A stretch of DNA of 64,000 nucleotides from Lama glama. Its lineage: Eukaryota. Below the pieces are notes generated by a model, which ran no database searches, was not told the DNA's origin, and saw only the letters and a list, made by a program, of their open reading frames with translations. Shown here piece by piece: positions 5,801 through 63,620 of the stretch (its first letter is position 1; each line of letters starts with the position of its first letter). The stretch is from assembly GCA_028534125.1 (NCBI GenBank), contig CM052851.1, forward strand, positions 2,790,001 to 2,854,000, in the 5' to 3' direction. The position numbers and the translations under genes are program-made.

Positions 5801-8625
5801 CCACCCATCTCAACACAGCATGACCATGGTGAGCACAGTGCCCTGACCTTTCTGTTGGCCAGACCACGCAGACCAATCTGACGGCAACCCTAGACTTCGC
5901 TGTCTGCCAGGGCTCGGCACCCCTGTTGGCCCCAGTGGAGCCCAAGCCTCCCTCTGGTCCCAGAATTCCAGCTGCAAGACCTTAAGCAACTCAGAGCCTC
6001 ATGGTTCTCTCTGCAAAATAGGAATGATGCTCCCCTATGACCAAGTTCTTTTTAGGATGAGAAACGGGATAAAGGTGCTTATTTAGCATTTCCACCAAAG
6101 TTGGGGACCGTCATCACTAGCAGTGGTGCCTTTGCCTCACCTGCATACACCCGCCATCGAGCTGTGTTTTGGGAGTGCCTGCCATGCGCCTGGGCCCCAC
6201 GATCACAGTCTGCTGCCCGCTCATTCCAGGAGCGTGGGAGCTCCGGGCTGCAGAGGGTGGGCCAGCCCCCTCAGCTCAGGGGGCTAACACCAAAGAAACG
6301 GACTCGCAGGGCCCAGCTAGGCAGGAGCCTCTGGAAGCCGCAGCCAGTTTAGCCGTCCTTCCCAGGAGCCCCCCGCCCGCCCTGCTGGGCCTGGCACGGC
6401 CCGCTGCGCTGCGGACAGGGCTCTCCCCACGGTGGCCCCACAGGGCGCCGTGCCAGGCCACAGTCGCGCTCCCTAACTCAGCGGCCTCCGCTCCAGGCCC
6501 GTGTTCCTGGAGGCTCCCGGGAGAGCCCAGCTGAGTTGCACACGCTGTAGCCGAGACTGGGCCTGCGAAGACACCGCACCTGCGGGCCATGCGGGAGATG
6601 GCTGACTCCCTGCCACCGCTGGCAAAACAGCGGCACCTTAGCCAAAGCAAAGCCAGCTGCGAGGGACCAAGCTTCCAGGGACGGGCCAAGAGGTCCCTCG
6701 GGCTGCCGTGGGCTCGCCAAGGAGGTCAACCAAGGACCCTGAGCCCTGCAGCCAGCGGGGCGGGGAGTAGAGGAGATCAGCACAGAAACAAGTTAAACCC
6801 TCACCATGACCGGAATCCTGGCCCAGACCTGAGGGGGAGGGCTTCCTGTAGGAGGCACACTTCTTGGGGCAGGGAATCTGGCAAAGGCAAGGAGGTGAGC
6901 AGAGAAAGCAGAACAGGCAGAGAGGCTGGCAGGGCTGGGGGCTGGGCAGTGAGCAACTTGGAAAGCACTTGAGGACGGATGCCCGGGGGCATCAAGGAGG
7001 AAGGCGGGGTGGGGGACACAGGGACACAGCTGGAGCGTCCCTGCAGCCACACAGAGAGGCAGGTGTTTCCCACTAACTCCCTGAAGGGCAGAAACTCACC
7101 AGTGTCCCCCGACACCAACCGGGAAGGAAATGGCCCCGAGGAGGAGGCCGGAGCTGGGAGAGCTGTGGGTCCCAGAACCAGGGGAGGGTGCTGAGAGGAG
7201 GAACTGAGAGGTCCCAAGCAAAGTGGCCTGTCGGGGCAGCGCCCCGGGATGCCGTCTCCGCCTTAGTCTTCTGCTGGCAGGTGGACACAGTGGGCATTTC
7301 CATAAAGGGCCAGAGCACGGGTGTCTACGGCTCTGCGGGCCTCTCCCCACCGCACACTCTCTCTCTCAACCCCTTTAAAAGTGTGGACACCGGCCTTAGG
7401 TCAAGGGCCAAACCAGAACAGGCGTGGACAGGGTTTGACCCACAGGCCGTGGTTTGCCCACCCAGGGCCAGGACACACTGGAGTCGGGTGCCCAGCTGGA
7501 GCCTAAGCAGGGAGGGGCCCCCTGCGGTTCCTCTTGTTGGAGCCCCTGTCTGGGCGGCTCAGAGGGCAGGTGGCTCAGGGGGCCCTCACAGGGGCTGAGC
7601 TCCTCCTAGGAAGCCGCCATCACAAGTGGCTGCGGCGCCTTGACCTTGACACTGGAGCTCCCGGCCTCTGACTCTCATGCTGGCCTCGGCTTGAGAGGCC
7701 TGGGTGTTTCTGACAGCACAATCTTCATGGGGAGTCACAAGAGCCCAGAGCAGGGTGGGGTCACCCAGGAGAAGGCCTCAGCTTGCAGACAGAATGTTCT
7801 GGGGGGCCAGGAGAGCGCTGTGCCTCACTGGGTCCAAACAGGACACTCTGCCAGGCCGGCCTCTCTCTGCCTTCCTGCTGTCCTGGTGGCTTCCCCGACC
7901 AAGCACTCATCTGTGTCCCTGACCCAGGCTCCTTGCTGTGACGGCCCTACTTGGACACTGGGGTCTGGACCCGGCCTGCAGAGGGAAGCTAGGCATCTGG
8001 CAGGTCCAGAGTCAGCTCCAGTTTTCAAGTTTCCCCAAAAATGTAATGTTTTAAATTTCAATTTGTTAGTAATTTTTTAATTTGTAAAGGTCACTAACCA
8101 TCGGCTTTTTCACAAGGAACTAGGAATGCTCAGCTGTTGGGGGCCTGGGGGCTCCTCCCCAGAGCAGACTGGCTCCTGAGCCAGGGGGCTGTCCCCCTCG
8201 CCCCCACGCAGCTCGGTGGCCTCCAGCCTTGGGTGCTGGGTCCTCAGACCCTGGCAACTGCATGTGGTTGTAAAAGAGCCACACCTCTGAGCTCTTAAAA
8301 GGAAAAACACTCCAAGCACTGCCCAGCTCCCACCACCAAGACTAAATCACACTGGTGTGAATAAAGCGCCTCCCTGAGTGCCGGGTGCTCAGGGGCGGAG
8401 GTCTCCCTCCCCTCTCATCCATGTGCACCTTTCCGGTGCGGCTCGGGGTCGGGTCCTGCGCTATGAATGCTTGTGGCCGAGGCATGCGTGCCCCTCACCT
8501 GAGTGACAAAGCCCTTGCACGACAAAAGCTGTTAAACTGCAGGCGGCACTTGGGCATTTTTCTAACTAAGCCCCTCCCTGACTGGGTCACTGACGCCTGT
8601 CCTGATGGTCATGTTCACACTGCAG

Positions 8626-24141: not shown

Positions 24142-24706
24142 AGGCCCAGAGGTCACGGGCACCGTCTCAGGTACCCGGAGCACGACGGTCACCTTCACCG
24201 TCCGCCCCGGTACCTCCCAGCCCATCACCCTGCAGAGCCGGCCCCCGGACTACGAGAGCAGGACCTCAGGACCCAGACGTGCCCCAAGCCCAGTGGTCTC
24301 GCCCACAGAGCTGAACAAAGAGATCCTGCCCGCCCCACTGTCCGCGGCCGCAGCCTCTCCCAGCCTCTCCGAGGTCTTTGGCCTTCCCAGCCAGCCCGCT
24401 CCCGGGGACCTGTTTGGCCTAAACCCGGTGGGACGCAGCAGGTCGCCGTCTCCCTCCATCTTGCAACAGCCAGTCTCAAATAAGCCTTTTACAACTAAGC
24501 CTGTGCACCTGTGGACCAAACCAGACGTGGCCGACTGGCTGGAAAGTCTAAACTTGGGTGAACATAAAGAGGCCTTCATGGACAACGAGATTGACGGCAG
24601 CCACCTCCCAAACCTTCAGAAAGAAGACCTAATAGACCTGGGCGTGACACGCGTCGGCCACAGAATGAACATAGAAAGGGCTCTGAAGCAGCTGCTGGAC
24701 AGATAA
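24142..24706 (+). CDS. SHANK2: SHANK2 last coding exon with SAM domain (...WTKPDVADWLESLNLGEHKEAFMDNEIDGSHLPNLQKEDLIDLGVTRVGHRMNIERALKQLLDR*)
   Basis: TTTCAG acceptor ending at 24141; phase 2 matches the upstream donor; Shank SAM domain; TAA at 24704-24706. Confidence 0.98.
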
Positions 24707-26389
24707 GGGCGGCTGCTCTTCTCCCCACAGACTCCCTGTTATAACTAGAGATGGGCTGACACCGAGACATTTGGACGGCGAGCGCCAACCCGTCCACGGG
24801 TCTGTTTCCTGGTCCCCAGAGAAATGCCATGTGTGTCCGTGGTGTGGCTAAGCCGAGGCCTTCAACTCCCAGCTCTCCGGGTGGGCTCTTTGGGCTGTTT
24901 CTGTCAAAGAGGGGACAAGGGACGGGGTCCCTGATCGTGGAAGGAGGCTCGCAGCTCGCCTCCCAACATGCGGGTCCTGGAGACCCCAGCAGACACAGCT
25001 CAGTCCGCGCTCTGCAGGCAGACACCACCGCACTAACCCTAATCTGTCGAGATACCTCCCGGGGCCTCCCTCTGCCGCCACCGGCTCGCCCACCCAGCCC
25101 GGCGGCACACAGCCTCCCCGCCATCCAGAGCCTCTTGGGGGCGCGCAGGGCACACGGGCTCTTTCCGTCCTGCGCGCGGCTCCGCTTGCAGCCAGACGCC
25201 CGCAGACACGCTTACCGGTGCCCCTTCTTGAGCCTGGAAGGCAGAGGAACTTTCTTTCCTCCGGATCCTCCCCCGCCGCCTCCTGCGACGTGCGCCCACG
25301 GTGCTGCGGCCCGGAGGCTCTTGGCAGTGGTGGGGGCTGGAATGGGATCGTGCCAGCTTTGCTTAGCTTGCTTTCTTTATTTCTGCAAACCTATTGGCAT
25401 AATTCCAAAGTGGCCAAACAGATGTCACCTGGAGTTAGTCAAAGCACAAAGTCACGATTCCCAGGAGGGGAGACCCGGCCGTGGGATCCAGCCAGTGGGC
25501 AGCTGCCTGGGTCCGAAATCTCCTCAAGGGAAAGGTGGCTGTCTGCCAGGAGCGTCCATCCAGGAGCATGAGAAGGGGGTTCTGCCTTTCAGAATTTTTT
25601 AAATTGAAAGTGTGTTGAATTCTGCAGAGAGCAGAGCATCCGCTCTGACACGCAGGACAAGACGCAAGGCTAACGGCGGGCGCGGCGGCGGGGGAGGTGG
25701 GTGGGGCGCGGCGCCCGTGGCCTGAACCCGGCCGGGGCAAGCATCTCTGCTGAGACAACCCTTTGTCCTCGGAGGCCAGGGAAGATGGCACCTGGGGGCT
25801 TTTTCCCTCTCCCTCTGAGCGTCCAGGAATCCCACCAGTTTGTCTTAATAGTGCAACAAGCTTTTTGAAAACCCAGTGGGTCTGGCGTGTAGACAGAACC
25901 CGGGGCTCAGAACAGAAGGGGCTGCAGGGAGAGGGTGCGAAGCACGCACAGACAGCAAAGAGCAGGGAGGTCTCCTGCCCTGCCAGTCCTGCCTCTCTGG
26001 CCAGGCTTTCTTGAGCCCTGCCCCACTGTCTCCCCCGCAGCCCCTCCCCTGTAACAATACCTCTGATTCCCAAGGGAGGCCACCAACCGCGCACGGGCCA
26101 CAGAGCACGCAGCCAGGCATCCAGCACCTTCTCCTGCGTCCGGAAGCAACTCGAGTGTCAGGCTTTTGGCTTTTATTATGATTTCAGAACTAGCCTAGCC
26201 CATCTCTAATTATAAAAACATGATTTTTTTCTTTTTTTCTTTATGCTCAGAATCAAGTGTCTGATTAGGTCTGGAACAGCTCTAGAATGAACATGTAAAA
26301 TTTAGCAATTCAACCCTTTCTTTACTGCAAGTTTAAATAGTTGTACAGATAGTTTATAAGCACAATATTTTAAGAAAAAAAAAAAGTGG

Positions 26390-26592
26390 NNNNNNNNNNN
26401 NNNNNNNNNNNNNNNNNNNNNNNNNNNNNNNNNNNNNNNNNNNNNNNNNNNNNNNNNNNNNNNNNNNNNNNNNNNNNNNNNNNNNNNNNNNNNNNNNNNN
26501 NNNNNNNNNNNNNNNNNNNNNNNNNNNNNNNNNNNNNNNNNNNNNNNNNNNNNNNNNNNNNNNNNNNNNNNNNNNNNNNNNNNNNNNNNNNN
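26390..26592. other. Assembly gap (203 N) inside the SHANK2 3'UTR
   Basis: Run of N. Confidence 1.
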
Positions 26593-29235
26593 TTCTTCAA
26601 AAATGGTTGTAATTCACAATGCAGCAGTTTCTCCAAAAACAAAGACACTCACCCCATACACACAGTTTTTCCAGCCACTCGCCCTGAATTGGAAACCGAG
26701 TTTTGGACCTTCTGTTCCAAAACCTTTTGCAGGTCACTCTTTGTATCTCAACGACCCTTTCCAACCTGAAATCAGCATAACACGAAGGCGCTTACTTCTT
26801 TGTACTTTCAGTTTTCCATTGTGAGATGAACGAACATCACCCTCGAGAAATTTCAAGCCAAGATGCTACAGGTGGCCTGTCAAGGCCACCCAATCTTCCA
26901 GAAAATGTAAAAATGGTGATCTGGCCAGTATTTGTCTTCCATCTGGTGATGTTGCCAAGTCCAAGTCCGCCACTTCACCACAGCCCCTCCCCTGTGCCCG
27001 CTGTTGGGGTTACCCCTCCGCTCAGTGCCAGGCAAAACGCTAGACAGGCTGACAGGAAAGGAAGCCGTGGGTAGACCGTAGCCAGTGGCAACTCGGCGGC
27101 GTTAGGGTTACTGCACTTTGGTGGCCGAAAGGTGAGAGCCGGTCCTTAGAGACTTCGAGGCGCATGAACTGAGCAGAAGCGAGCAGGCTGAAAGTCGAAA
27201 GAGCTGACGACATGGTCTATTTTCACACCACCTTACTACAGAAAAGGCGCAGGACCTATCAGAACCTGCACTGACCACAAAATAAACACGTTGCCAAAAT
27301 GAATCGGGCTCTAGCTCCATTTGATGGTTTTGCCACCGGAAGCAATAGTTCCTCCTTCAGGTCCCCGCCCACTGCCCTCCCCCGTGGGACACGCCAGGAC
27401 CAGGCCCTCCTCCACGACCCTCTTTACTGGTGAAACAGATGTTAGACTGCTCAAATAAAGATCATGTTAATACTATCCCAGGTTTTAAAAAGATCAGCTT
27501 TTTTTGTTATATACTGTAATTTAAATAAATTGCATTTACACGCCTAGTTTCTGTAATATTGTGTATACAAAATCAAAACCTCTCAAGATGTAAATTATGT
27601 CCACCTGCCAAGATACCTTCTCCAGGGTGTCTGTGCGCATTTTAAGTTAATTCATATAATATAAAAATGACTCAATGTGACTGTTGATTTGCTGAACCTT
27701 ACATATCACAAGTGAATTATTTGTGGTACTTTAGTTAATAAAATGGTGGGTTTTTTCCTGAGTTACTGAACAAGCAAGCATCACCCAGGGTGACCTGGCT
27801 ATGACTTTTTGTGTGTGGGGGGCCACAAATATTGATTTTTCCCGTTAACAAATTTTTCATTTGTTTTTTAGAAGCTACTGTTTCACACTACAGTTTGTGT
27901 AACATGTGTTCACATTATCTACGTTTCTGTTACTTTTGTGCTTTTATTCTTTTTAGACCTCATTAAAAACAGAAAGAAAAAACAAGCTCCTGTAATTTGC
28001 ACTTTCTCCCAACCCTCAATCTCTTGTATGGCAACCAAAATTACCGTAAAAAAATAAATACACTATTGCACTACGGTGGTGGTTCTGATTGCAAACAGTG
28101 AGAACTGTCTGAATTAAACAGAGTGGCCAAGCTCACAGTGCCACATAGGTTACCTGAACATCACAGCCACTCAAGCAGATAACATCCTTCATCAAGGAGT
28201 GAAAATTCTCCTTGCACTGAGCTCATCCACCTTGGTTCCATTTCCTTACAGTTTTCTCAGTGACTAGATGGACACGTGTTGATCTCAGAACTGTGTAAAA
28301 CGTCGCCGCGGACGTCTGTGAACCCTGCGGGGAGGGGTGGCTGAGATCTGGCTGGCCTTCTGCGGGGTGGAAGCGGAGGAGGCATGGATGCTGAGCCCTG
28401 AGTGAGGGCCCCCCACGCCCACGCAATGCAGAGCCAACGCGTATGCGTGCTCTGAGGCCTGGGGCAAGAGAACGAGTCTCCTGGCAGAAAAATGTGCCAG
28501 GAAGACACGGGCTGTCCCTCCCAGGGTAGGGAAGCAGAGTCTGACCTTAACTACTGAACCCCTCCTCTGGCCTCATCAGAGAACACTCGCCGTCCAGCTC
28601 CTGGACAGTCTCTGTTGTGGCGCGTCCTCCATCCAAACGGCAGCCACTGTGTCTCATGTCCGTCAGAAGGTCCCATCCTCTGACCTGCTGTAGTTTATGC
28701 TCCCTGGAGCGCCCCCACTTCACATCCCTTGGTTTCTCCCAGACCGTACCCCCACCCCCTATCCACTGTCCAATGGTTTCTTCCAGACAAAGGTATCAGT
28801 TTGTCTTGTTAAGGAAAATACATACACTGGAGGGCTGTTTCTTTGACTTCTACTTGATCTGAGGCATTTTAATAACCAGTGAACTAGAACGTCTCTCTGT
28901 GTTTGTAGATCTGCACACGCGAGCAGGGGACGGTTCCCCGGTGGCAGGGTGAGCACGCTGGACTGCCCTGCTTGGTGGGGAATCGGGTCATTTCCAGACT
29001 TGTTTCTCAGACTTCAGCAGATTGATCCCTTCAATTTTGAATCCATGCTGTATCAGTGACTTTGTTTCTTTACTGTTGCTGTAACACATTTCCACATTTC
29101 AGTCTTTTACTGTTTTATGTTTAAAATTACAATCACTGTCCATTGCTTCTACTCTGGAACTCTTTGTTTATAACAATTCTGAAACTTCAATGTGAGCCTT
29201 CAAATAAATATAGAGATGAAAAAAAATGAAAACAA

Positions 29236-29241
29236 AATAAA
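29236..29241 (+). terminator. SHANK2: Candidate distal SHANK2 polyadenylation signal
   Basis: AATAAA followed by GTGTGTG and TCAGTGTT; a second AATAAA lies at 29203. Confidence 0.5.
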
Positions 29242-30749
29242 GTGTGTGCCTTCAGTGTTCTGAATCTGACCTGCATAAAATCATGCTGTGCTCAAATGCT
29301 GTGTATTTAATGAGGATAAATATACCTCCAATGTACAATGTAGCTGATGAAACAGTCCTAGTGCCTTGGTTTCTGAACTGAGAAGCCCTCTCAATGCACG
29401 AGAAGTCAAAGGTGACTCGAGGAATGAAATGTCAAGGAGCCCTGCAGCCTTTCTCACCGAGACTGGCGCATACATAGTCATTTCAGTTAAAAAATAAAAA
29501 GAAAATTGAAATAAGATTGTGTTATCAATTAATTTTCCATTCAAGATGCTCTCTAGTGTGTCACTTTCAGTATTTTCATTCAGTTAAAATACCAAACATG
29601 TCTGAGAATTTCAAAGAACAGAAGATGACATCTCGACCAAGAGGCTGGGGCTTCCAGGGCGCCTTCCCCTGCGCTGCGTCGCCCCCCAGTGGTTCTCGGC
29701 AGTAACGCTTGTCCAAGTCAGCAGTACCATCCTCTCCACGTTTTGTTAAAAATCAACCAAATGTTTGCTTTTAGTGACAGAGGCCACTCATCACAAAAGA
29801 ATTATCCCCATTTCCCATGAGCTACAGGCATGGCGATCCACGGTCTGTCTGTTTCCAAGAGACAGACGACGTGAGAACACCAGTCTAACCCTCGTCTCCA
29901 GCCACCGCGCTCCATTTACCCAAAGCTAAATTCACGCTCCCCTGAGCAGCCCCTGTCACCTTGGAAGATGAGCCCGAGGTGTGCAAAGCGGGTCAGAAGC
30001 CGCTCTGCCTGGGACTGGAGTCATCTCAGCAGCAGCAAGCCTGCAGGACGGTGCGGTCCCGGCGGAGCCGCTGCCACCCGCCTTCTCAGGGCCCTGGGTG
30101 GGCAGGTGCCCCTGGCTGCGTCCACTGGCACGTCCTGGGTTGGTCTGCGCGGTGAGCAAGCAGCCACACGCTGGGCCTGCTCACCGCACATGACCACCAG
30201 CAGGGCTGCCGTTTACCTGGCCAAGCCATTTGGATATGCAGACTTCTTCATTTCAGCTCATGCAGCCAACATCTGAGCGTCCAAAGTGGATGGTGCCGGA
30301 GAGACGGCCAGGTCTTTTAGGGGGCCCCATTCCACATGCTGCTGCCGCCTCTACTGGAAATACGTACGTGTCCAGGAGTCAGAGGATGAGCCAGGGCACT
30401 GACCACAGCCGCTGGGCCAGACAGGCAGCTGAGCCCGGGGCCCTGTGTGACATGGGCCCAGGGAAACGGCTGGGCCAGTTTCAGTACAGCCAGGTGAGCA
30501 GGACCGAGCGTGGAGACAGCCAAGCACTCACCACGTATGGTGGCCTGCACACCTGTCCTGCCACCAACCTCGCAGTCCTCCTTGCCAAGGAACTTAAAAG
30601 GAATTAAAGATGTCCCTCAAACCCCAGAACCCAGAGAGCAGGAGAGCATGGTCCTTGAAGGTCCAGAAAAGTGCCTAGAGCACCAGGCAGAAATCACCTG
30701 TTTCTGTGCATGGTCCTGAGAGGTAGTCGAGGCTGGAAATAACTAAATA

Positions 30750-30885: not shown

Positions 30886-32929
30886 CTGTAGGGCTTCCGT
30901 TGCTAAGTCAACTTGTAGGAAAGAGAACCCGAGAAGGGCTGCTGGGGTCAGGGCCCATCACTGACAACAAGGACACCCCAGTCTGCTCCCCTCCAAATGC
31001 ATCTGTACAGGGCCAGGGGTCCAAGAGGCTGGGCAAGTTGGCGGCTCCTCCCAGGTGAACCCTTTCAGGGCTGTGAAAAAGAGATTTAATTCAGAGGCAA
31101 CCTGGCTACCTCACTTCCCCAACTAGAATCAGGGAGGCCTGGACCTCAGGATGCCGGGTTTTCTCAGAGCCAAGACGTGATACATGTAAAAGGACCCACA
31201 GCTTAGAGATGTGTGACACATGGCACCTGCCTTCATTCCCACAAGAACTCCATGAGGTAGTATCGCGAAGCTGAGGAACCCAAGGCACAGAGAAACCAGA
31301 TACCACTGCCAGAGGTGAACAGACCGCCGGAAGACCTGAGTCCTCGCCAAGGGAGTGGCCCTCCCACTAGACTCTTCCTCCCCAGCCTAGGTGACCCCAA
31401 CTCCTCCCAGCGCACTCCTCTGTGCCCTAGTCACCCAGAACACACTTCTGCTGCTTGCAACTGCCGATCCCAGGTGATGCAGTGCCTGACTCCAGTGCCA
31501 GTGTTTCTCCCACCCCGCAGCCTACAGCCAGGACCAGGGCAGCCCCTTCCCCTCCCTTCACCAGCACCTTCAGGGCAGACACAAAGGCCAGCCGAATGAA
31601 AGATGAGGTGAGGAGTCACACAGCTGCAGAATGAGTCTGAAAAGGAGGCTGACAGGCCCCCACAGCTTTGAGCTCCACGTGACGCCAAAGGCTCGGAGCT
31701 GGGGGCCCTCCCTCGGCCTGGAGCCTGCCATCTGGGCAAGCTGAAAATAAAGGCTCCATTTCCCAGCAAGAGTGTATAAATGTAGCTTCGAAGGCCCTGA
31801 TAGAGACATCGAGGCCCTGGGGAGAACCGCTCGGCCTGAGACCTCAGCGCCCCACGGGCTGCCAAGAGAACCCAGCCCTCCCTCTCCCACACAGGCACCA
31901 GCCACCAGCTTCCCTGGCAGCAGCCTGGAGAACGGAGTGGACAGAGCGATGGCTCTCTTCGGTGAGGGGAAGAGACCATAAAAAGAGAAGATCGGATGTC
32001 GCACAAAACGCACGCAGGCCACCGCGTATGCACAGCAGCAACACAGAAAGGGCCACGCAGGTCCCAGCTCGGCCATCGAGGCCGGCGCCCACCTGGCCCT
32101 GACCCCCCACCTCTCCAAGCATGTCCTCCTTGTTCACCTAGCTCCAGTCACCTTTTCCCCCTTGAGTTCTCCTTTGTACCTGCTGCTCCTGGCACCCCCA
32201 TCTCTGCATGGCTTCCTGCACCACCAGATGAGAGTAGAACCATCCCAGTCACACGCTCCCATCTCCCCAGTTCCCTTCTTCGTGGCATTTATTACTATTA
32301 TTACCTCAAGGTGGCTTATTAATTTGCTTATTGATTATCTGCCACCCCTACCACCCCACACACACTTCTAGAAGGTAAGCCCCAGCAGGACCCGAGCTCC
32401 GCCTACCTCAGCACTGCTGTTTCCCTGGCACAGGCAATGTCTGCAGAGGCAGCCTATCCTTCTCCAAGAGGCCCCTGGTCGCCCCTCAACACTCAGCCCT
32501 CTGCAGCTGCAGCCACTCCAGCGCTGGAAGCTTCCATCTGGTCCCCAGAGACCTAGTAAGGACAGAGACTTCTCTAGTGCCTCGAGGGACCCGTCCCGAG
32601 CACTGCCTGCCTCTGCGCGGACCTTCCCTGTTCCCTGGCCTGGAAAGTTACTGGGACTCTCCCCTTAACTCACCCATTTACCTGCAGCTCTTGTCCTAAC
32701 CACCTGCTGCAGGAGCACCCCTGCAAAACCAGGCACTTCCTCTATCTGGAGCTACATACCTATCAGGCCCTGCCCCAGTAGAGGCTATCAGGGCAGAAAT
32801 CAGAGCTATTCCCAGGTGCAGGGGGTGGGTCACCAGGTAGGGAGAGAGGCACTTACCAAATCCCTCATCAGCGGCTACACAGTCGGCCCTGGGCAGACGC
32901 CTGGGCTCAGTCGCCTCCTGCCTCTCCCT

Positions 32930-34000
32930 TGCCCACCACGGACCTGCCACACGTGCTAGGCCGCACCAGGGACGGCCACCTCCGTTCCCGCAAGTGGAAA
33001 GCACCAGCACCACGGGGCCACCCGCGGGACTGCTGGGAGGACGGAGACCCCATTGGGCCGGGGCTGGGAGCGCAGTGATTCTCCCAGAACCGGGTGTTTG
33101 GGATAGTTACCTCGATTCCAGCTTCCGGAAACAGGCGCCCCTTCCGCCCTGTGCTCGCCTGAGCGCGGCTCCGCGGAGCACAAGGGCGGGCGCGTGGGCG
33201 ACGCCTTCGCCCTCCTGTGGGCCCCAGCTGGCCCCGGGCGCCTCTGCCGGGGCTCTGGGTGGAAAACGGCCAGAAAGCGGGGCGCACAGGGGTCCCACGG
33301 CCCGGCCGGGCGTCGAGGGGCCTCACGCGCCACTCTCGCGGCGGCCCCCACCCTGCCCGCCCTGGGCACGGCCGACAGCGGAGCCGCCTCCAGGCCGGGG
33401 GCCCTGCGCCAGCACCCCAGGCCCCAGCGGCCCCACAGACCCGAGGCAGCCGCGCGGACGCTCCTCCAGGCCCCGCGCGCCCGCCTGGAGCAGGCGCGGG
33501 AGGAGGGCGCAGAGGACGCCGGGCTCGCTGGCCACGTGCCGCCCGTGGGCCAATCATAACCGTAAAGAGACCGTTGGGCTCGTGCCCCTCGCGGACCAAT
33601 CAAGACTGGCAAAGGGACTGGTGGTCACGTGCCCCAAGTGAACCAATCACGATTGGCAAACGAGTGTGGCTCCATGATTGGCCCAACTGAAGTAAGCTTG
33701 CAGCTTCTGACCAATCCGGAGGCCAGGAGGCAGCCGTGGACGAGGCGGCCCCGCCCACCAGGAACGGTGGCTGGCGCGGTGGCGGCCGTCGAGGGCACCG
33801 TGGGGCGCGGGGTCTGCAGGTGCTCCCCGGGAGCTGGCCCTGGAGAAGCGGAGAGCTGTGCCCGGCTCCCTTTCCGCACGGAACCGAGGCCTCGGCGTGG
33901 GCTGCGGGGAATGGGACCCCCCCCCCGTCCCCACACCCACTCTCAGCTGTCGGCCGGGCAGGGGCCCGGGCAGCCTTGCGAGCCCTGCAGTTCCGTCGGG
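32930..34000. promoter_or_regulatory. Orphan CpG island with promoter architecture (6 CCAAT/ATTGG boxes, E-boxes, GC boxes, ETS motif)
   Basis: Much higher CpG density than the flanks; CCAAT at 33550, 33596, 33643, 33711; ATTGG at 33652, 33677; CACGTG at 33533, 33626; TTCCGGAA near 33123. Confidence 0.8.
33533..33672 (+). repeat. Degenerate tandem repeat, three units of ~46-47 bp, each C(A/T)CGTG-N11-CCAATCA
   Basis: Units start at 33533, 33579 and 33626 and align by eye. Confidence 0.8.
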
Positions 34001-35214
34001 AGCACACTGTTGAGGGTCATTAATCTTAATTAACAGATTCGTTGTTTTGAGTTTCTAGGCCGCACAGGCACAGTGGATCCACATTGAGAAATAGAAAATT
34101 CCCGCAGTCCTGCCGCCAGACTGTGGGAGCATCTAGGCAAACATCGCTCTCTGTCTCTTAACGCCCACCCCCTTACCTTCTTTTGAATCACAATGTGCTC
34201 GCACTTCTCCGCTTTCCTTTACCGCAAGCCTTTGTCCCCAGCTCTTCGTGGTAATGGTGACTGGTATCCCAGTGAGCAGGTACCCCGTAATTTCTTTGAC
34301 GAGCCTCTTGTAGTTGGACATTAGGGTAATTTACATTGTTACAGCATTGTCTTACATCCAGCTCTCTTCAGGCGTGGTCTTCAGATCACTGCCACTCATG
34401 CCTCAGCCCTCAAGGACAGGTTCTTGCAGACAGGTCGGGGCAGATGTCAGTAAGATGATGACAGAGTATCTGGGGTCCAGTCTCAAGAAATGCATGTCCA
34501 CGTCCCAGGTCAGGGGATTGATAGCTACACAGCCAGGGCGGCTTAACACAGCTTGGAACATCTTCACTTTTATCCCTGGAAGCAGATCACTTTTAATAAT
34601 AGTTGTATCAATTGATACCATGTTTATCTGCCAGTAAAAGAAACCCCATTTAAAAGTGGCTGAAACAAATCATACTTTCTTCTTTTCATGTGACAAAAAA
34701 TGTAAGCTCCAGGAGGGCAGGGGTTCTGCCTTGTTCACTGCCCCAGCATCTAGAACAGAAGGTTCCCAAGTAGGGATGCTGGAGGACTGCATGAATGACA
34801 CGATGCTAGGTGGGCAGTTGCTGGCTTTCGTCTGACAGCTCGACATTGTCAAGTCTGAGATTCAGCCTTTCCCTCAAACTTATCAGCATCAGCCTCACAG
34901 CAACGGAAGGCTGCTGCCACTCCACACATCACATTCTCTTCCAAGGCAGGAAGAAGAGGAGAAGGCCACTTCAGCTGTGTCTGTCTTCCTTGAACAGGGA
35001 AGCCAGTGCTTTCCCAGAAGTGTCCACTAACATGCCATCAACCACAACAGTGTCTAGAGCAACCTAGGGGCAAGGAACGGACGGGAGCAGCTGGCTTGGC
35101 ACAGTGCTGCCAGGAACAAAACTGGGGCTGTGTGAAGAGGAGAAGATGAATGGAGAATGGGTGGGCAAGCGGCAGACACTGTCACAAGAGTGTATGGGTA
35201 GAGCGTCCTCACTA

Positions 35215-35754: not shown

Positions 35755-36435
35755 TGTTGACATAAATAATAAACAATAATTATAGGCAAGAGGTTTTTTT
35801 TAGAACATATTTTGATTGACTTTTTTCTTTTTTTTATTCTTTTTTTTATAGTTTTGGGGGGGTAATTAGGGTTTTTTTAATTTTATTTTTTGTGGAGGTA
35901 CTGGGGATGGAACGCAGGACCCCGTGCATGCTGAACACGCCCTCCACCACTGAGCTCTGCCCTCCCCCAGGAAAGAGTTTTATCAGAGCCAAACTGAGGA
36001 CTAGCCTGGAGGCCCGCTTCCCCGTGACTGTGAGAAAGCGCCCCGGAGAAGCGGGGCTTCCAGCACAGCTTCATATCTTGTCAGAACAAAGAAACGTTAA
36101 CAAGGCAGGGATACATTTCTTCACAGTTTCCAAAAAAAGAAGAGACCAGCAGGTACATGGTGAATCAGCACAGCCTTGGCACCTGCGAAGGCAGTCTTAC
36201 CATCAGCGGAGGACCAGCACTGGCGTCCCAGGAGGAGGGGCATCAATCTTTATTTGTATTTGTAATAGGGACATCTTTGCTTTCAGCCAGTGTGCCCATG
36301 TCTTTAATGAGTGAAGCAGATGAACAATGTATGTTTGACGGGCCACAAACAGGCTATTGCAGTTAGCATCAAGCTCAAGCTCACTCGCGTATAAGCCAGA
36401 ACATCTTCCCTGCATCTCAAGATGTGAACATTTCT
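35755..36435. mobile_element. Probable ERV LTR inserted into an L1 fragment and itself interrupted by a SINE
   Basis: Starts TGTTG where the L1 text breaks after 'cagttgatgg'; L1 resumes at ~36445 with 'ggacacttggg'; resembles the segment at 41965-42380. Confidence 0.5.
35815..35968 (-). mobile_element. tRNA-derived SINE (camelid Vic-1-like)
   Basis: Reverse complement reads GGGGGAGGGCAGAGCTCAGTGGTGGAG...GTCCTGCGTTCCATCCCCAGTACCTCCA followed by an A-rich tail. Confidence 0.85.
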
Positions 36436-37630: not shown

Positions 37631-38659
37631 TTGAAACACAAAAGGCAGCGCTGCTGTGAATGGCCATGTGCCGGCGTGAGGGTCCAGGCGTCCACCCCAG
37701 GAGAATCGCGTGCTGGAAGCTTCCCCGGCCCCACCCACACACGACCACGCAGGTGCCCCTGGACACCTTGGTGACAGGGTGGCTCTGGCAGTGCCCATCC
37801 CCCTGCACAGCTGTTCCACACCATGTCCTACGGCCCCTGTGCTGTGAGACTGAAGTCGTCTCCTGAATGTACACGGGCTAGGGCATCCCCAATTCATCCT
37901 TAAGAGAGCTGTGGGACTAAAGCGCATCTTACACATTTTGACTAATATTTGAAGGGCCCAAACGCTGGTCCCTCTCGGGTGGTGACAGGGTACACGCATC
38001 CGCACAGCTACATTCTGCGCGAGGGAGCCCAGGCCCGCTCTTCGTTGGATTCAAATGAGAAATTCAAACATAAATAATTAACATACATGCCTTATAAATT
38101 ATGCTAAACTTGGTGAAAGCTGCAGTAAGCACTGATTATCTCCCACTGGTTCTGAAAGTCAGGAACTGGTGAGCAGGTCAGCTGGGTGGTTCTTGGCTCA
38201 GGGGCTCTCGGGAGGTTTCAGTCCAGGTATTGGCCAGGACTGGCTGGGGATGGAGGACTCGTTTCCAAGGTGACACACTCACACCTCAGCTCCTTGCCAC
38301 CTTGACCTCTGCAAAGGGCTGTGTGAACTTCCTTCTGACGAGGGCTGGCTTGTCTCAGAGCAGACGCTGACGTGTCCCCCGTGCCCCGTGTCTGGAAGAG
38401 ACACCTGCTGTTTTCACAATGCCCTCCCCTTCTGCAGGTCAGCCCAGCTCCCTGCAGGAGGGGCCGCACAGGGCCGTGGTGCTCGGAGGAGAGGCCCACC
38501 CACTGGAAGCCATCAAGGAGGCTGGCTCTGGAAGCATCCTTGCACAGTTTCAGGTGAAGGTAGGACTGGAGAAAATGTCCCCATCAACACTACTACAAAG
38601 CAAGGGGGCAAAGGGACGTGAGAGGAGGCAACAGGAGGGGCTGGCTTCCTCAGTTTAAT

Positions 38660-44443: not shown

Positions 44444-44601
44444 GGGGAGGACTGGGGGTGGCTCAGTGGCAGAGTGAGTGCCTAGTATGCATGAGGTGCT
44501 GGGTTCAATCCCCGGTACCTCCATTAAGAATAAATAAAGAAACTTAATAACCTCGCTGCCCAACCAAAAAAATAAAATTAAATTAAAAATTTAAAAAACC
44601 C
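44444..44601 (+). mobile_element. tRNA-derived SINE (Vic-1-like) with 12-bp target-site duplication
   Basis: A box GGCTCAGTGG, B box GGTTCAATCC, A-rich tail; TSD ACATGGGACTGA at 44432-44443 and 44602-44613. Confidence 0.92.
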
Positions 44602-46869: not shown

Positions 46870-47866
46870 GCAAGTGGGTCAAAAAAAGTTTATTGTGAAT
46901 ATTTAATTTAAAAAAATCATACCTATGAGGTGTGCTACAGAAATTTAGATACAGTAATTGCATATAAAACCCAACCTAATTGTGGTAAAGCAAATGCACT
47001 TCGGGAAAGAAAACGTGTCCCTCGGGGCCACAGACGTCCCCACACGCGCGTCCCCACGTGAGCATCTGGGGTCCGCCACCCTGACCACGCAGGGCTGAGC
47101 GGGCCTCCTGGTCCCTCAGGATGGGTCCCTCAAGTCCCCGCAGAGCTGGCACGGGGCGCCGTGGGCCAGAGCACCCACGTGCTCGCTTGTGCTTCTCAGC
47201 CAAGTCGATCGATCAAACTTCGCTATCACTGAGCATGAGGTTTGCCCCCTTGGCGGCAGGTGTTTCCAGCAGTTTACAACCGGGGAGGGACCTGCCCCCC
47301 ACAGCAGGGTGGCTGTTCGCCCCCAGGGCGGCCACAGCCCCGCTGCCCGGGGAAGCTGACCACAGGCCTTTGGGCCGGGAGCCGGAGACAAGCGGGGAGG
47401 ACCTTGCAGGGGCCGGGGGACGCTGCATCGCGGGGCAGGGCCGCGGCTCAGCAGCCCTCCTGGGTGGCCGGGAACGGCCAGAGAACCAGGACAAGACGCG
47501 GGGCAGGAGGTAGGCCAGGGTCAAAAGCTGCGGGACCTCACAGTGCCAGGCGCTTTCCCACATAACCTCAAAGCTCAGGTTCTTTCTAGCCACTTCCCTC
47601 CCTGCAAACGCTGGGACCTCAGAGACGCTGCTGAGACAGCGACTCCTAACACCACGGCGGTGAGGTGCACTCGGGACAACCGAAGTGGCTCCACGCGACA
47701 GTCGATTTGGCAAAAAAAGAAAATACCTTAAATGCATAAAAATAATTACCGAGTCCCCCCAGGAGCATAATCACAATATTTCAGCAAATCCTGTGGCGCA
47801 AACATTTCCAAAAGCATCAGCAGAAGCATTAAATACGAAAGCGGCACGCCTGCTGCCTGGCCCGCG
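46870..47866 (-). other. CTTN: CTTN 3'UTR
   Basis: Runs from the stop codon to just past the AATAAA at 46889-46894; AU-rich terminal block. Confidence 0.8.
46889..46894 (-). terminator. CTTN: CTTN polyadenylation signal AATAAA
   Basis: TTTATT on the + strand, ~1 kb after the stop; TGTGTG/T-rich sequence downstream on the - strand. Confidence 0.85.
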
Positions 47867-48003
47867 CTACGGCCGCAGCTCCACGTAGTTGGCGGGGAAG
47901 AGCCCGTAGCGGCCCTTGCACAGCCCGCGCCACCAGCCGTCGTCAATCATCTCGATGTTGGTGATGATGTCATCGGGGTCGAAGGAGATCTCGTCGTCAC
48001 CCG
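47867..48003 (-). CDS. CTTN: Cortactin last coding exon, SH3 domain ([45 protein letters not shown])
   Basis: C-rich tract plus CAG acceptor at 48006-48004; TAG at 47869-47867; SH3 consensus. Confidence 0.98.
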
Positions 48004-48847
48004 CTGGGGGGGGGCACAGAGAGGGACATGAGTGCATGAATGACCCGCCGGACTGCGCTCCCCTACAGCCTCCCACTGAGGCTCGCAGCAGGCAGGGGGC
48101 ACCATCTCTGCTAAATGAGGGCAGGTCTGCTCCCACACCCTGGCTACAGCTGCCAGAATAACTGGGAGCAAGAAAGCAAATGTGCCGGGGCTCCGAAGCC
48201 AGGCTGCTGGGCAGGTTAGGGAAGCCGGGGCAGGGCTGGGAGGGGCTGGGGCAGGACAAAGGAAGGAGCAAGCACTCCTCCCAGGGAAGCAGAAGTGGGA
48301 AACCACAGCCCCAAAGGCTGGCTGGGGGCTGGGAGTGTGAGGAGGATGAACAGGACCTTGGGGGGGACCCACGAAACACTCAGAGCTGCAAAGGGCGGAA
48401 CGGGGACTTTGCGGTGGAGAACCTGACTGACACCAACAGGCCGGGAGACAGCAGTGACAACCACGGCGTGGACCCGGGGAAGAGAGCGGCCGTGGGCCCA
48501 ACATGATGCAGGGTTTGGAGCCGGGCAGGGCTGAGGGTCGTCCTGACGTGAAAGGCGCCCATGACCTGAGGGGCTGGCGGAGGCTGTGGGGCTGCTCCGG
48601 ATCGGAGGCGACAAGAGAGGTGCCAGGGGAACCCAGGGACAGGCCCGACCAGGACTAGAGGCGCCCCCGGGCGGCGGGTAAACGGGGACCAGCTCTGCAG
48701 GCCTTGCAGTCTTTCAACGGCAACTTTTCACTCCAGGAGGAGTGTGCTTGTGATGGGCGGTGTCCTTGGCTTGGGGTCTCTAGGGGCCCAGGGCACCCCT
48801 GCAGCTGCAGAGCTCAGTGGTTCAGAGACTAAAGGGAACAGGGAGCA

Positions 48848-54942: not shown

Positions 54943-55196
54943 GGGGGGGTGGGGGTGGGTACAGCCCAGCGGCAGAGCACGTGCTCAGCACACTTACGGT
55001 CCTGGGTTCCATCCCCAGTGCCGCCAGTAAAATAAATACATAAACCTCAAAAAAAACTTCCTTGTGATGAGCTGTAATTAAAAAGACTCTGAAAAAATAT
55101 ATATCTACGCACATGTGTAACTGAGTCAGTTTGCTGTAAACCTGAAACTCATATTGTAAATAGACTACACCTCAATAAAAAATAATTAAAAAGAAA
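54943..55196 (+). mobile_element. tRNA-derived SINE (54943-55056) joined to an L1 3' end (55061-55196) inside one TSD
   Basis: SINE body with B-box-like GGTTCCATCC; L1 tail 'aactgagtcagtttgctgtaaacctgaaact...ttgtaaatagactacacctcaataaaa'; AAAACCACTGACC on both sides. Confidence 0.8.
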
Positions 55197-63502: not shown

Positions 63503-63620
63503 GGGTGGGAGGGTATAGCTCAGGGGTAGAGGGCGTGCTCAGCACGTGGGAGGTCCTTGGTCCAATACCCAGCACCTCCACTAAAAAAGAAAAAAAGAAT
63601 TTTTTTAATATTAAAAAAAA
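63503..63620 (+). mobile_element. tRNA-derived SINE (Vic-1-like)
   Basis: GGGAGGGTATAGCTCAGGGGTAGAG...GGTCCAATACCCAGCACCTCCA followed by an A-rich tail. Confidence 0.88.

Follow-up and report, generated by a model that had tools for sequence, protein, structure and literature searches.

We analysed a 64-kb stretch of DNA (hereafter the window), with an overall GC content of 57% and a CpG observed/expected ratio (o/e) of 0.46, in which the 3′ ends of two genes face one another across an intergenic CpG island (Table 1). The left neighbour is SHANK2, identified by a SAM domain with 70/70 residues identical to a PDB SHANK2 chain. Its stop codon lies at 24705–24707 and its 3′ UTR cluster closes with a final AATAAA (29493); near this signal, ~4.0 kb to the left of the island core, we infer the transcript to end. 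The right neighbour is CTTN on the opposite strand, with a last-exon SH3 domain that matches cortactin (E = 7e-28), an HS1 repeat farther right, and a poly(A) signal (46889) that is ~13.2 kb to the right of the core. Both genes thus end towards the island and no gene start occurs at the site, in agreement with the initial annotation. The SHANK2 3′ UTR is interrupted by a 203-N assembly gap at 26390–26592. Four copies of a tRNA-derived SINE, which we take to be camelid-type, are scattered through the window, and a search for structured RNA gave only a tRNA-like match at 44454, within one of these copies, in an Rfam scan of the 64 kb and 0 predictions with ARAGORN.

Between the two 3′ ends, the CpG island is genuine, as had been proposed, and contains the kilobase with the highest CpG count in the window (102 CpG, compared to 79 in the best kilobase elsewhere), with 200-bp windows above island thresholds running from 32928 to 34151. 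It is longer than 500 bp, has a GC content of at least 55% and a CpG o/e of at least 0.65, and lies away from known gene starts, as expected of an orphan island. Its intergenic position, length, GC content (>55%), o/e (>0.65) and clustered factor sites are also shared with the orphan islands described in PMC8286816, from which it differs in that a transposable element (TE)-derived core is suggested for it. The island is centred on a triplicated module of E-boxes and CCAAT boxes (the core). Three G-quadruplex-type motifs, all on the minus strand, were observed in its flanks, at 33345–33362, 33415–33442 and 33917–33938.

Table 1 Features of the island and its surroundings, with positions counted from the first letter of the window
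Feature	Position	Strand	Description
SHANK2 last exon and 3′ UTR	24143–29500	+	Left neighbour
5′ splice sites, consensus-like	32673–33110	−	Six on minus vs. one on plus in 32500–33530
Orphan CpG island	32900–34000	.	GC 72%, CpG o/e 0.76, 1101 bp
Repeat unit 1	33518–33563	+	E-box 33533, CCAAT 33550; most diverged, 62% identical to unit 2
Repeat unit 2	33564–33610	+	Variant E-box CTCGTG 33579, CCAAT 33596
Repeat unit 3	33611–33657	+	CCAAT 33643, inverted box 33652; 77% identical to unit 2
MLT1M-like U3 stretch	33571–33631	−	E-box/ATTGG/E-box, compared with MLT1M consensus positions 114–177 as printed
Three further CCAAT boxes	33652–33715	.	33652 and 33677 inverted; 33711 forward
GC box (SP/KLF type)	33749–33756	+	38 bp right of last CCAAT
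Neighbouring MLT1-type solo LTR	34604–35186	−	TG...CA ends, 5-bp flanks matching at 4/5, CpG o/e 0.19
tRNA-derived SINE, four copies	35828–35955, 44445–44600, 54964–55045, 63518–63599		73% to the 44445 copy
Second LTR-like element	38090–38540		CpG o/e 0.27
CTTN last exon and 3′ UTR	46889–48004	−	Right neighbour

Every motif position given in the initial annotation was exact: E-boxes at 33533 (CACGTG), 33579 (CTCGTG) and 33626 (CACGTG), CCAAT at 33550, 33596, 33643 and 33711, ATTGG at 33652 and 33677, and the MYB-type motif YAACNG at 33557 and 33684 on the plus strand and at 33571 on the minus strand. The composite of an E-box, 11 bp and CCAAT was found three times in the 64 kb, always in the core. 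Across 5000 dinucleotide-shuffled versions of the island, it averaged 0.0002 occurrences and never exceeded 1. The density of CCAAT/ATTGG boxes (6 in 183 bp) also exceeded the highest value among 5000 shuffles (3). Scored with a flank rule that we take to describe NF-Y-type boxes, the six core boxes had better flanks than the 38 boxes outside the island (Mann–Whitney p = 0.0013), and unit 3 additionally contains an extended USF-type site, GTCACGTG, at 33624. Neither blastn nor nhmmer detected a second copy of the core within the window. The boxes at 33643–33656 form a near-palindromic CCAAT pair, 4 bp apart, that is probably too tight to be occupied by two NF-Y trimers simultaneously. A looser E-box/CCAAT match at 63543 falls inside a SINE and is incidental.

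An E-box positioned 10–12 bp 5′ of a CCAAT box in the same orientation, which is the arrangement of the core, is an established NF-Y/USF composite, as the initial annotation had stated; distances of 10–12 bp (PMC4889920) and an E-box at −12/−11 (PMC3730095) have been reported. The core shares with NF-Y/USF promoters the motif pair, its spacing and plus orientation, the lack of a TATA box, CpG richness and a downstream GC box, but lacks an annotated gene and has the module tripled at intervals of 46–47 bp. In the Miwi promoter, which is driven by NF-Y and USF, the arrangement differs in that the functional E-box is located 3′ of CCAAT (PMC3355075). The 46–47 bp period is outside the preferred double-CCAAT distances of 24–28 and 35–37 bp (PMC4889920), while the 25 bp that separate the inverted boxes at 33652 and 33677 are inside them.

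The three units are a decayed tandem triplication and are homologous throughout. They are 46–47 bp long with pairwise identities of 62–77%, and outside the motifs 19, 18 and 25 of 36 positions are identical between units, compared to ~9.5 expected. With the motif flanks masked as well, 11, 11 and 16 of 24 positions are identical (p = 0.02, 0.006 and <0.0001). Tandem Repeats Finder (score 30) missed the triplication, which was detected by a separate repeat search. The fixed distance of 11 bp between the motifs, reported initially together with diverged spacers, holds in 3/3 units, but the divergence had been overstated, as the 11-bp spacers are identical at 7, 6 and 7 positions between units. 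Because the units are tandem duplicates, the equal spacing is largely inherited, and its use as evidence of selection is not supported. Columns within motifs were more often invariant than other columns (10/11 vs. 15/36, p = 0.004, although these motifs had first pointed to the units), and the excess was retained when only the better-aligned part of the repeat was considered (12/25 other columns invariant, p = 0.016). These results suggest some selection on the motif columns, in units that were noticed by way of the same motifs.

We also assessed the likeness of the core to MLT1 LTRs, which the initial annotation had missed. MLT1K, L and M are classed under MaLR (PMC5753468), and among repeats, spaced NF-Y/USF pairs are “nearly all” in MLT1 (PMC3431495), with USF1/2 precisely aligned, at constant spacing, to CCAAT in MLT1K (PMC12065363) and NFYA/B and USF1/2 enriched at MaLR-derived start sites (PMC12963367). 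The minus strand of the core was aligned by eye to a single consensus, MLT1M, from the RepBase class III LTRs printed in PMC3601003 supplement 2; the names MLT1K, L and J gave 0 matches in the printed set. Identical bases occupied 44 of 64 columns (69%), with three gaps of one base each. Outside the E-boxes ±3 and TGATTGG ±2, 18 of 32 columns matched (binomial p ~0.002 at a 30% background and 0.0005–0.006 for 27–33%, hand-placed gaps not being allowed for), and the three copies matched the same MLT1M module at 27, 30 and 26 of 44 columns. The spacer before TGATTGG in unit 2, a comparison chosen post hoc, matched MLT1M at 9 of 11 positions at the same offset. TGATTGG itself occurred once in the 313,197 characters of that supplement (PMC3601003), in MLT1M, though line breaks may hide others.

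The order of motifs is likewise similar. Read on the minus strand from 33631, the window has an E-box, 23 nt, TGATTGG, 11 nt and an E-box, and MLT1M has an E-box, 24 nt, TGATTGG, 12 nt, an E-box, 12 nt and CCAAT, so that the E-box period is 47 in the core vs. 49 in MLT1M. From E-box to CCAAT, the spacing is 11 bp in all three core units, compared to 12 bp in MLT1M and 16/18 bp, centre to centre, in MLT1K. MLT1K and MLT1L may also have an inverted CCAAT pair like that at 33677–33715. The core differs from the MLT1 LTR, which has one module, in having three near-equivalent copies, in the shorter spacer, in lacking recognisable ends, R and U5, and in being placed in a CpG island. Its descent from an MLT1 LTR (K/L/M-like, ERVL-MaLR) is probable on the strength of this alignment, with the caveat that much of the identity is in or beside the motifs and possibly convergent. 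Since the core resembles the MLT1 U3 module, the check for an LTR origin that had been proposed earlier would probably be positive.

The core is at most an eroded fragment and not an intact LTR. The island flanks showed no by-eye resemblance to MLT1M, and the core has no counterpart of the CCAAT found after the E-box in MLT1M/K. None of 21 TGT...ACA pairs had a target-site duplication, even with one mismatch, and TG...CA pairs with such a duplication were about as numerous as expected by chance (3 of 1015 vs. 1.7). No TATA box or poly(A) signal occurred on either strand in 32500–34590. The absence of LTR ends, target-site duplication, TATA box and poly(A) signal indicates that the core is not a young repeat. 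A young repeat copy was the outcome that the initial annotation had set as contradicting its interpretation, and the likeness found here is instead to an old, eroded element without termini, in which the repeat units have diverged to 62–77% identity.

Two LTR-like elements in the window provided further comparisons. The solo LTR at 34604–35186 is ~900 bp from the core and served as a local control that is not part of the element; the element at 38090–38540 is one we take to be MLT1-type. The island did not align convincingly with the two (p = 0.035–0.30 over four tests), but the test is a weak one, as even the pair of LTRs gave no significant alignment to one another. The solo LTR seems to be without an intact E-box/CCAAT module and to have an insertion near 34695–34800 that we take to be an L2-like 3′ tail. 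Among public plasmid records, the island had 25 short hits no stronger than chance would give (best E 0.02) and the neighbouring LTR none, and phage records matched neither.

Sequence clues on methylation of the island point both ways. CpG o/e was 0.79 in the core vs. 0.19 and 0.27 in the solo LTR and the second LTR-like element, and the E-box CpG was retained in 3/3 core E-boxes. The TpG/CpA o/e of the island (1.21) was no lower than that of its flanks (1.21–1.28). The region is generally rich in CpG, with o/e reaching 0.59 and 0.70 in 3′ UTR stretches of SHANK2 (24708–26300) and CTTN (46900–47870), respectively. Such values are unusual for 3′ UTRs, which makes CpG richness by itself a poor indicator of methylation here.

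Strand cues were evaluated on both sides of the core. Leftward transcription, which would be in the LTR’s own sense, is hinted at by the excess of minus-strand 5′ splice sites (6 vs. 1, p = 0.06), which were balanced in flanking intergenic DNA (8 vs. 7 and 27 vs. 26); the first minus-strand poly(A) signal in that direction is at 32288. Rightward cues comprise the forward CCAAT boxes, the GC box at 33749, which would fit a start near 33790, and a G-rich skew (p = 0.057). The GC skew changes sign at the core, though not significantly (left p = 0.19–0.32, right p = 0.057). A putative bidirectional element would be the simplest reading of these cues, each of which is weak (p = 0.06). A plus-strand splice acceptor at 34057–34058 that was seen by eye failed the pyrimidine filter.

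Considering origin and function together, the best explanation is that of an old LTR-derived NF-Y/USF module that was tripled locally and acts as a putative bidirectional orphan promoter or enhancer, to which we assign an even chance. Under this model, the core would be what erosion has left of the U3 enhancer/promoter module in an old MLT1 LTR on the minus strand, and one module would have been tandem-duplicated twice to give three copies of 46–47 bp, a length that has room for approximately one NF-Y trimer and one USF dimer. NF-Y and USF1/2, or related bHLH factors, would bind each copy cooperatively. Together with the three extra CCAAT boxes, the bound modules would hold the site open and unmethylated, such that CpGs in the E-boxes persisted and the flanks either turned into a CpG island or remained one. 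Broad TATA-less initiation could then produce non-coding transcripts to the left, in antisense direction towards the 3′ UTR of SHANK2, to the right from ~33790, or both. NF-Y and USF1 belong to the small set of factors able to bind their motifs in unmodified or repressed chromatin (PMC3730095), and methylation of the E-box CpG blocks USF (PMC3355075). An LTR-derived lncRNA gene has been described elsewhere (PMC6562477). The promoter or enhancer interpretation in the initial annotation is supported with respect to composite geometry, the island, the lack of a gene start and the better-kept motif columns, but not with respect to selection on the 11-bp spacing or the MYB/germline reading.

Some observations count against the model, among them that TpG/CpA is not reduced in the island. 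We take the human interval orthologous to the SHANK2–CTTN site to be on chr11 under the coordinate prefixes 7044–7048. The available part of a human atlas of TE-derived start sites had no chr11 row beginning with these prefixes (PMC12963367 supplement file 4), and more than 93% of TE-derived start sites are without CpG islands (PMC12963367). The literature searched, bioRxiv supplements aside, contained no description of the SHANK2–CTTN intergenic locus.

The alternative closest to the initial view is a host-born orphan CpG-island promoter or enhancer, in which the composite arose in unique sequence and was then duplicated, with the likeness to MLT1M due to convergence. This would account for the location of most matched columns in or beside the motifs, with only 18/32 outside them, and for flanks that are unlike an LTR and lack LTR ends; moreover, about half of all CpG islands are orphans (PMC8286816). 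We nevertheless consider it unlikely, given that the E-box period matches, that the spacer before TGATTGG matches at the same offset (9/11 in unit 2, post hoc), and that MLT1 is the main repeat source of the NF-Y/USF pair (PMC3431495).

The core could also be a non-functional relic, in which a degraded LTR fragment was triplicated by chance in an island generated by GC-biased gene conversion and is methylated or inert; NF-Y and USF may bind there without transcription, as at most LTR sites. The GC and CpG richness of the entire window, the undepleted TpG/CpA and the lack of a human TE start site at the presumed position are consistent with such a relic. Gene-conversion islands and pseudo-islands are described classes (PMC8286816), and NF-Y binds only 2–6% of MLT1 copies, with most bound TE sites unmarked (PMC12065363). 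However, the motif columns and the three E-box CpGs were kept while the copies diverged by 23–38%, and the island is centred on the module next to an LTR that lost its CpGs, such that we give this explanation a low probability.

A germline promoter driven by A-MYB, such as one for a testis lncRNA or for the precursor of pachytene piRNAs, is very unlikely. The initial annotation had suggested possible germline activity based in part on the MYB-type sites, which are correctly placed but at background across the island (3 observed vs. 2.9 expected, p = 0.55; window average 1.9 per kb) and only marginally enriched in the core (p = 0.04). Because these sites are not enriched, the germline reading has little support, despite the three YAACNG motifs in the core, the control of Miwi by NF-Y and USF (PMC3355075) and the MaLR-initiated transcripts observed in testis (PMC3836709). 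In piRNA tables (PMC7782496 supplements), no locus named after SHANK2 or CTTN and none at the chr11 prefixes was present among the matches listed, which included 26 of 82 for ‘chr11’, all from mouse; a prefix search may miss a locus that spans the interval.

A young solo LTR of an endogenous retrovirus, with undecayed CpGs and LTR12-like tandem repeats in U3, is highly improbable. Tandem units that each have an NF-Y site are common to the core and the U3 of LTR12/ERV-9, of which tandem CCAAT repeats are typical (PMC3730095, PMC12065363), but LTR12 combines CCAAT with MAF/GATA and keeps its LTR structure, whereas the core combines CCAAT with E-boxes and has no such structure. The missing termini and target-site pair, TATA box and poly(A) signal, the lack of a second copy in the window and the 62–77% identity of the units also argue against recent insertion.

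Two antiparallel low-stop frames were observed at 34055–34634, with one stop in ~166 codons on the plus strand; they are probably due to chance. Frames beside the island had no match in Pfam (8 frames or ORFs) or PDB (3 frames), 0 of 10 ORFs were found by exact look-up in a collection of 15 billion, and three further homology searches of island-side frames gave no homologue. With one frame, phmmer retrieved only two unnamed singleton ORFs from 1.84 billion proteins, with 90–94% identity and ending at the same residues, which cover parts of 34136–34696 but not the core and which we interpret as non-coding DNA at the orthologous site of a closely related organism. The low-stop frames would favour an island-side protein-coding gene or retrocopy, so far unannotated, that is served by the promoter; the empty protein searches largely refute this reading, leaving a negligible probability.

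NF-Y/USF pairs from MLT1, LTR promoters and orphan islands are all known, and the core would work in the manner of an established class of element, which makes it only moderately surprising. What is new is a tandem-amplified module inside a CpG island beside the 3′ end of SHANK2, an instance that is undescribed in the literature searched. If the LTR-derived model is right, orphan islands could originate by local amplification of a transposon factor-binding module that shields its surroundings from methylation. A more far-reaching version, which we regard as quite unlikely, is that an ancient MaLR LTR was reduced to its NF-Y/USF module, that this module, once amplified, nucleated the 1.1-kb island and that a spliced RNA from the island, antisense to the SHANK2 3′ UTR, tunes SHANK2, a synaptic and autism-linked gene, in a lineage-specific manner; if true, the birth of a CpG island around a module amplified from a transposon could here be dated. 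Because the core is only 4 kb past the 3′ end of SHANK2, antisense or enhancer effects on this gene can be tested, and the three copies and the CpG-depleted adjacent LTR constitute a built-in test of module dose against methylation and promoter strength.

Within unit 1, positions 33544–33554 on the minus strand are the sole match in the 64-kb window to the pattern that we take to represent ERSE-II (ATTGG-N-CCACG). This match could provide an ER-stress input through ATF6/XBP1, or could be a by-product of the GC-rich spacer.
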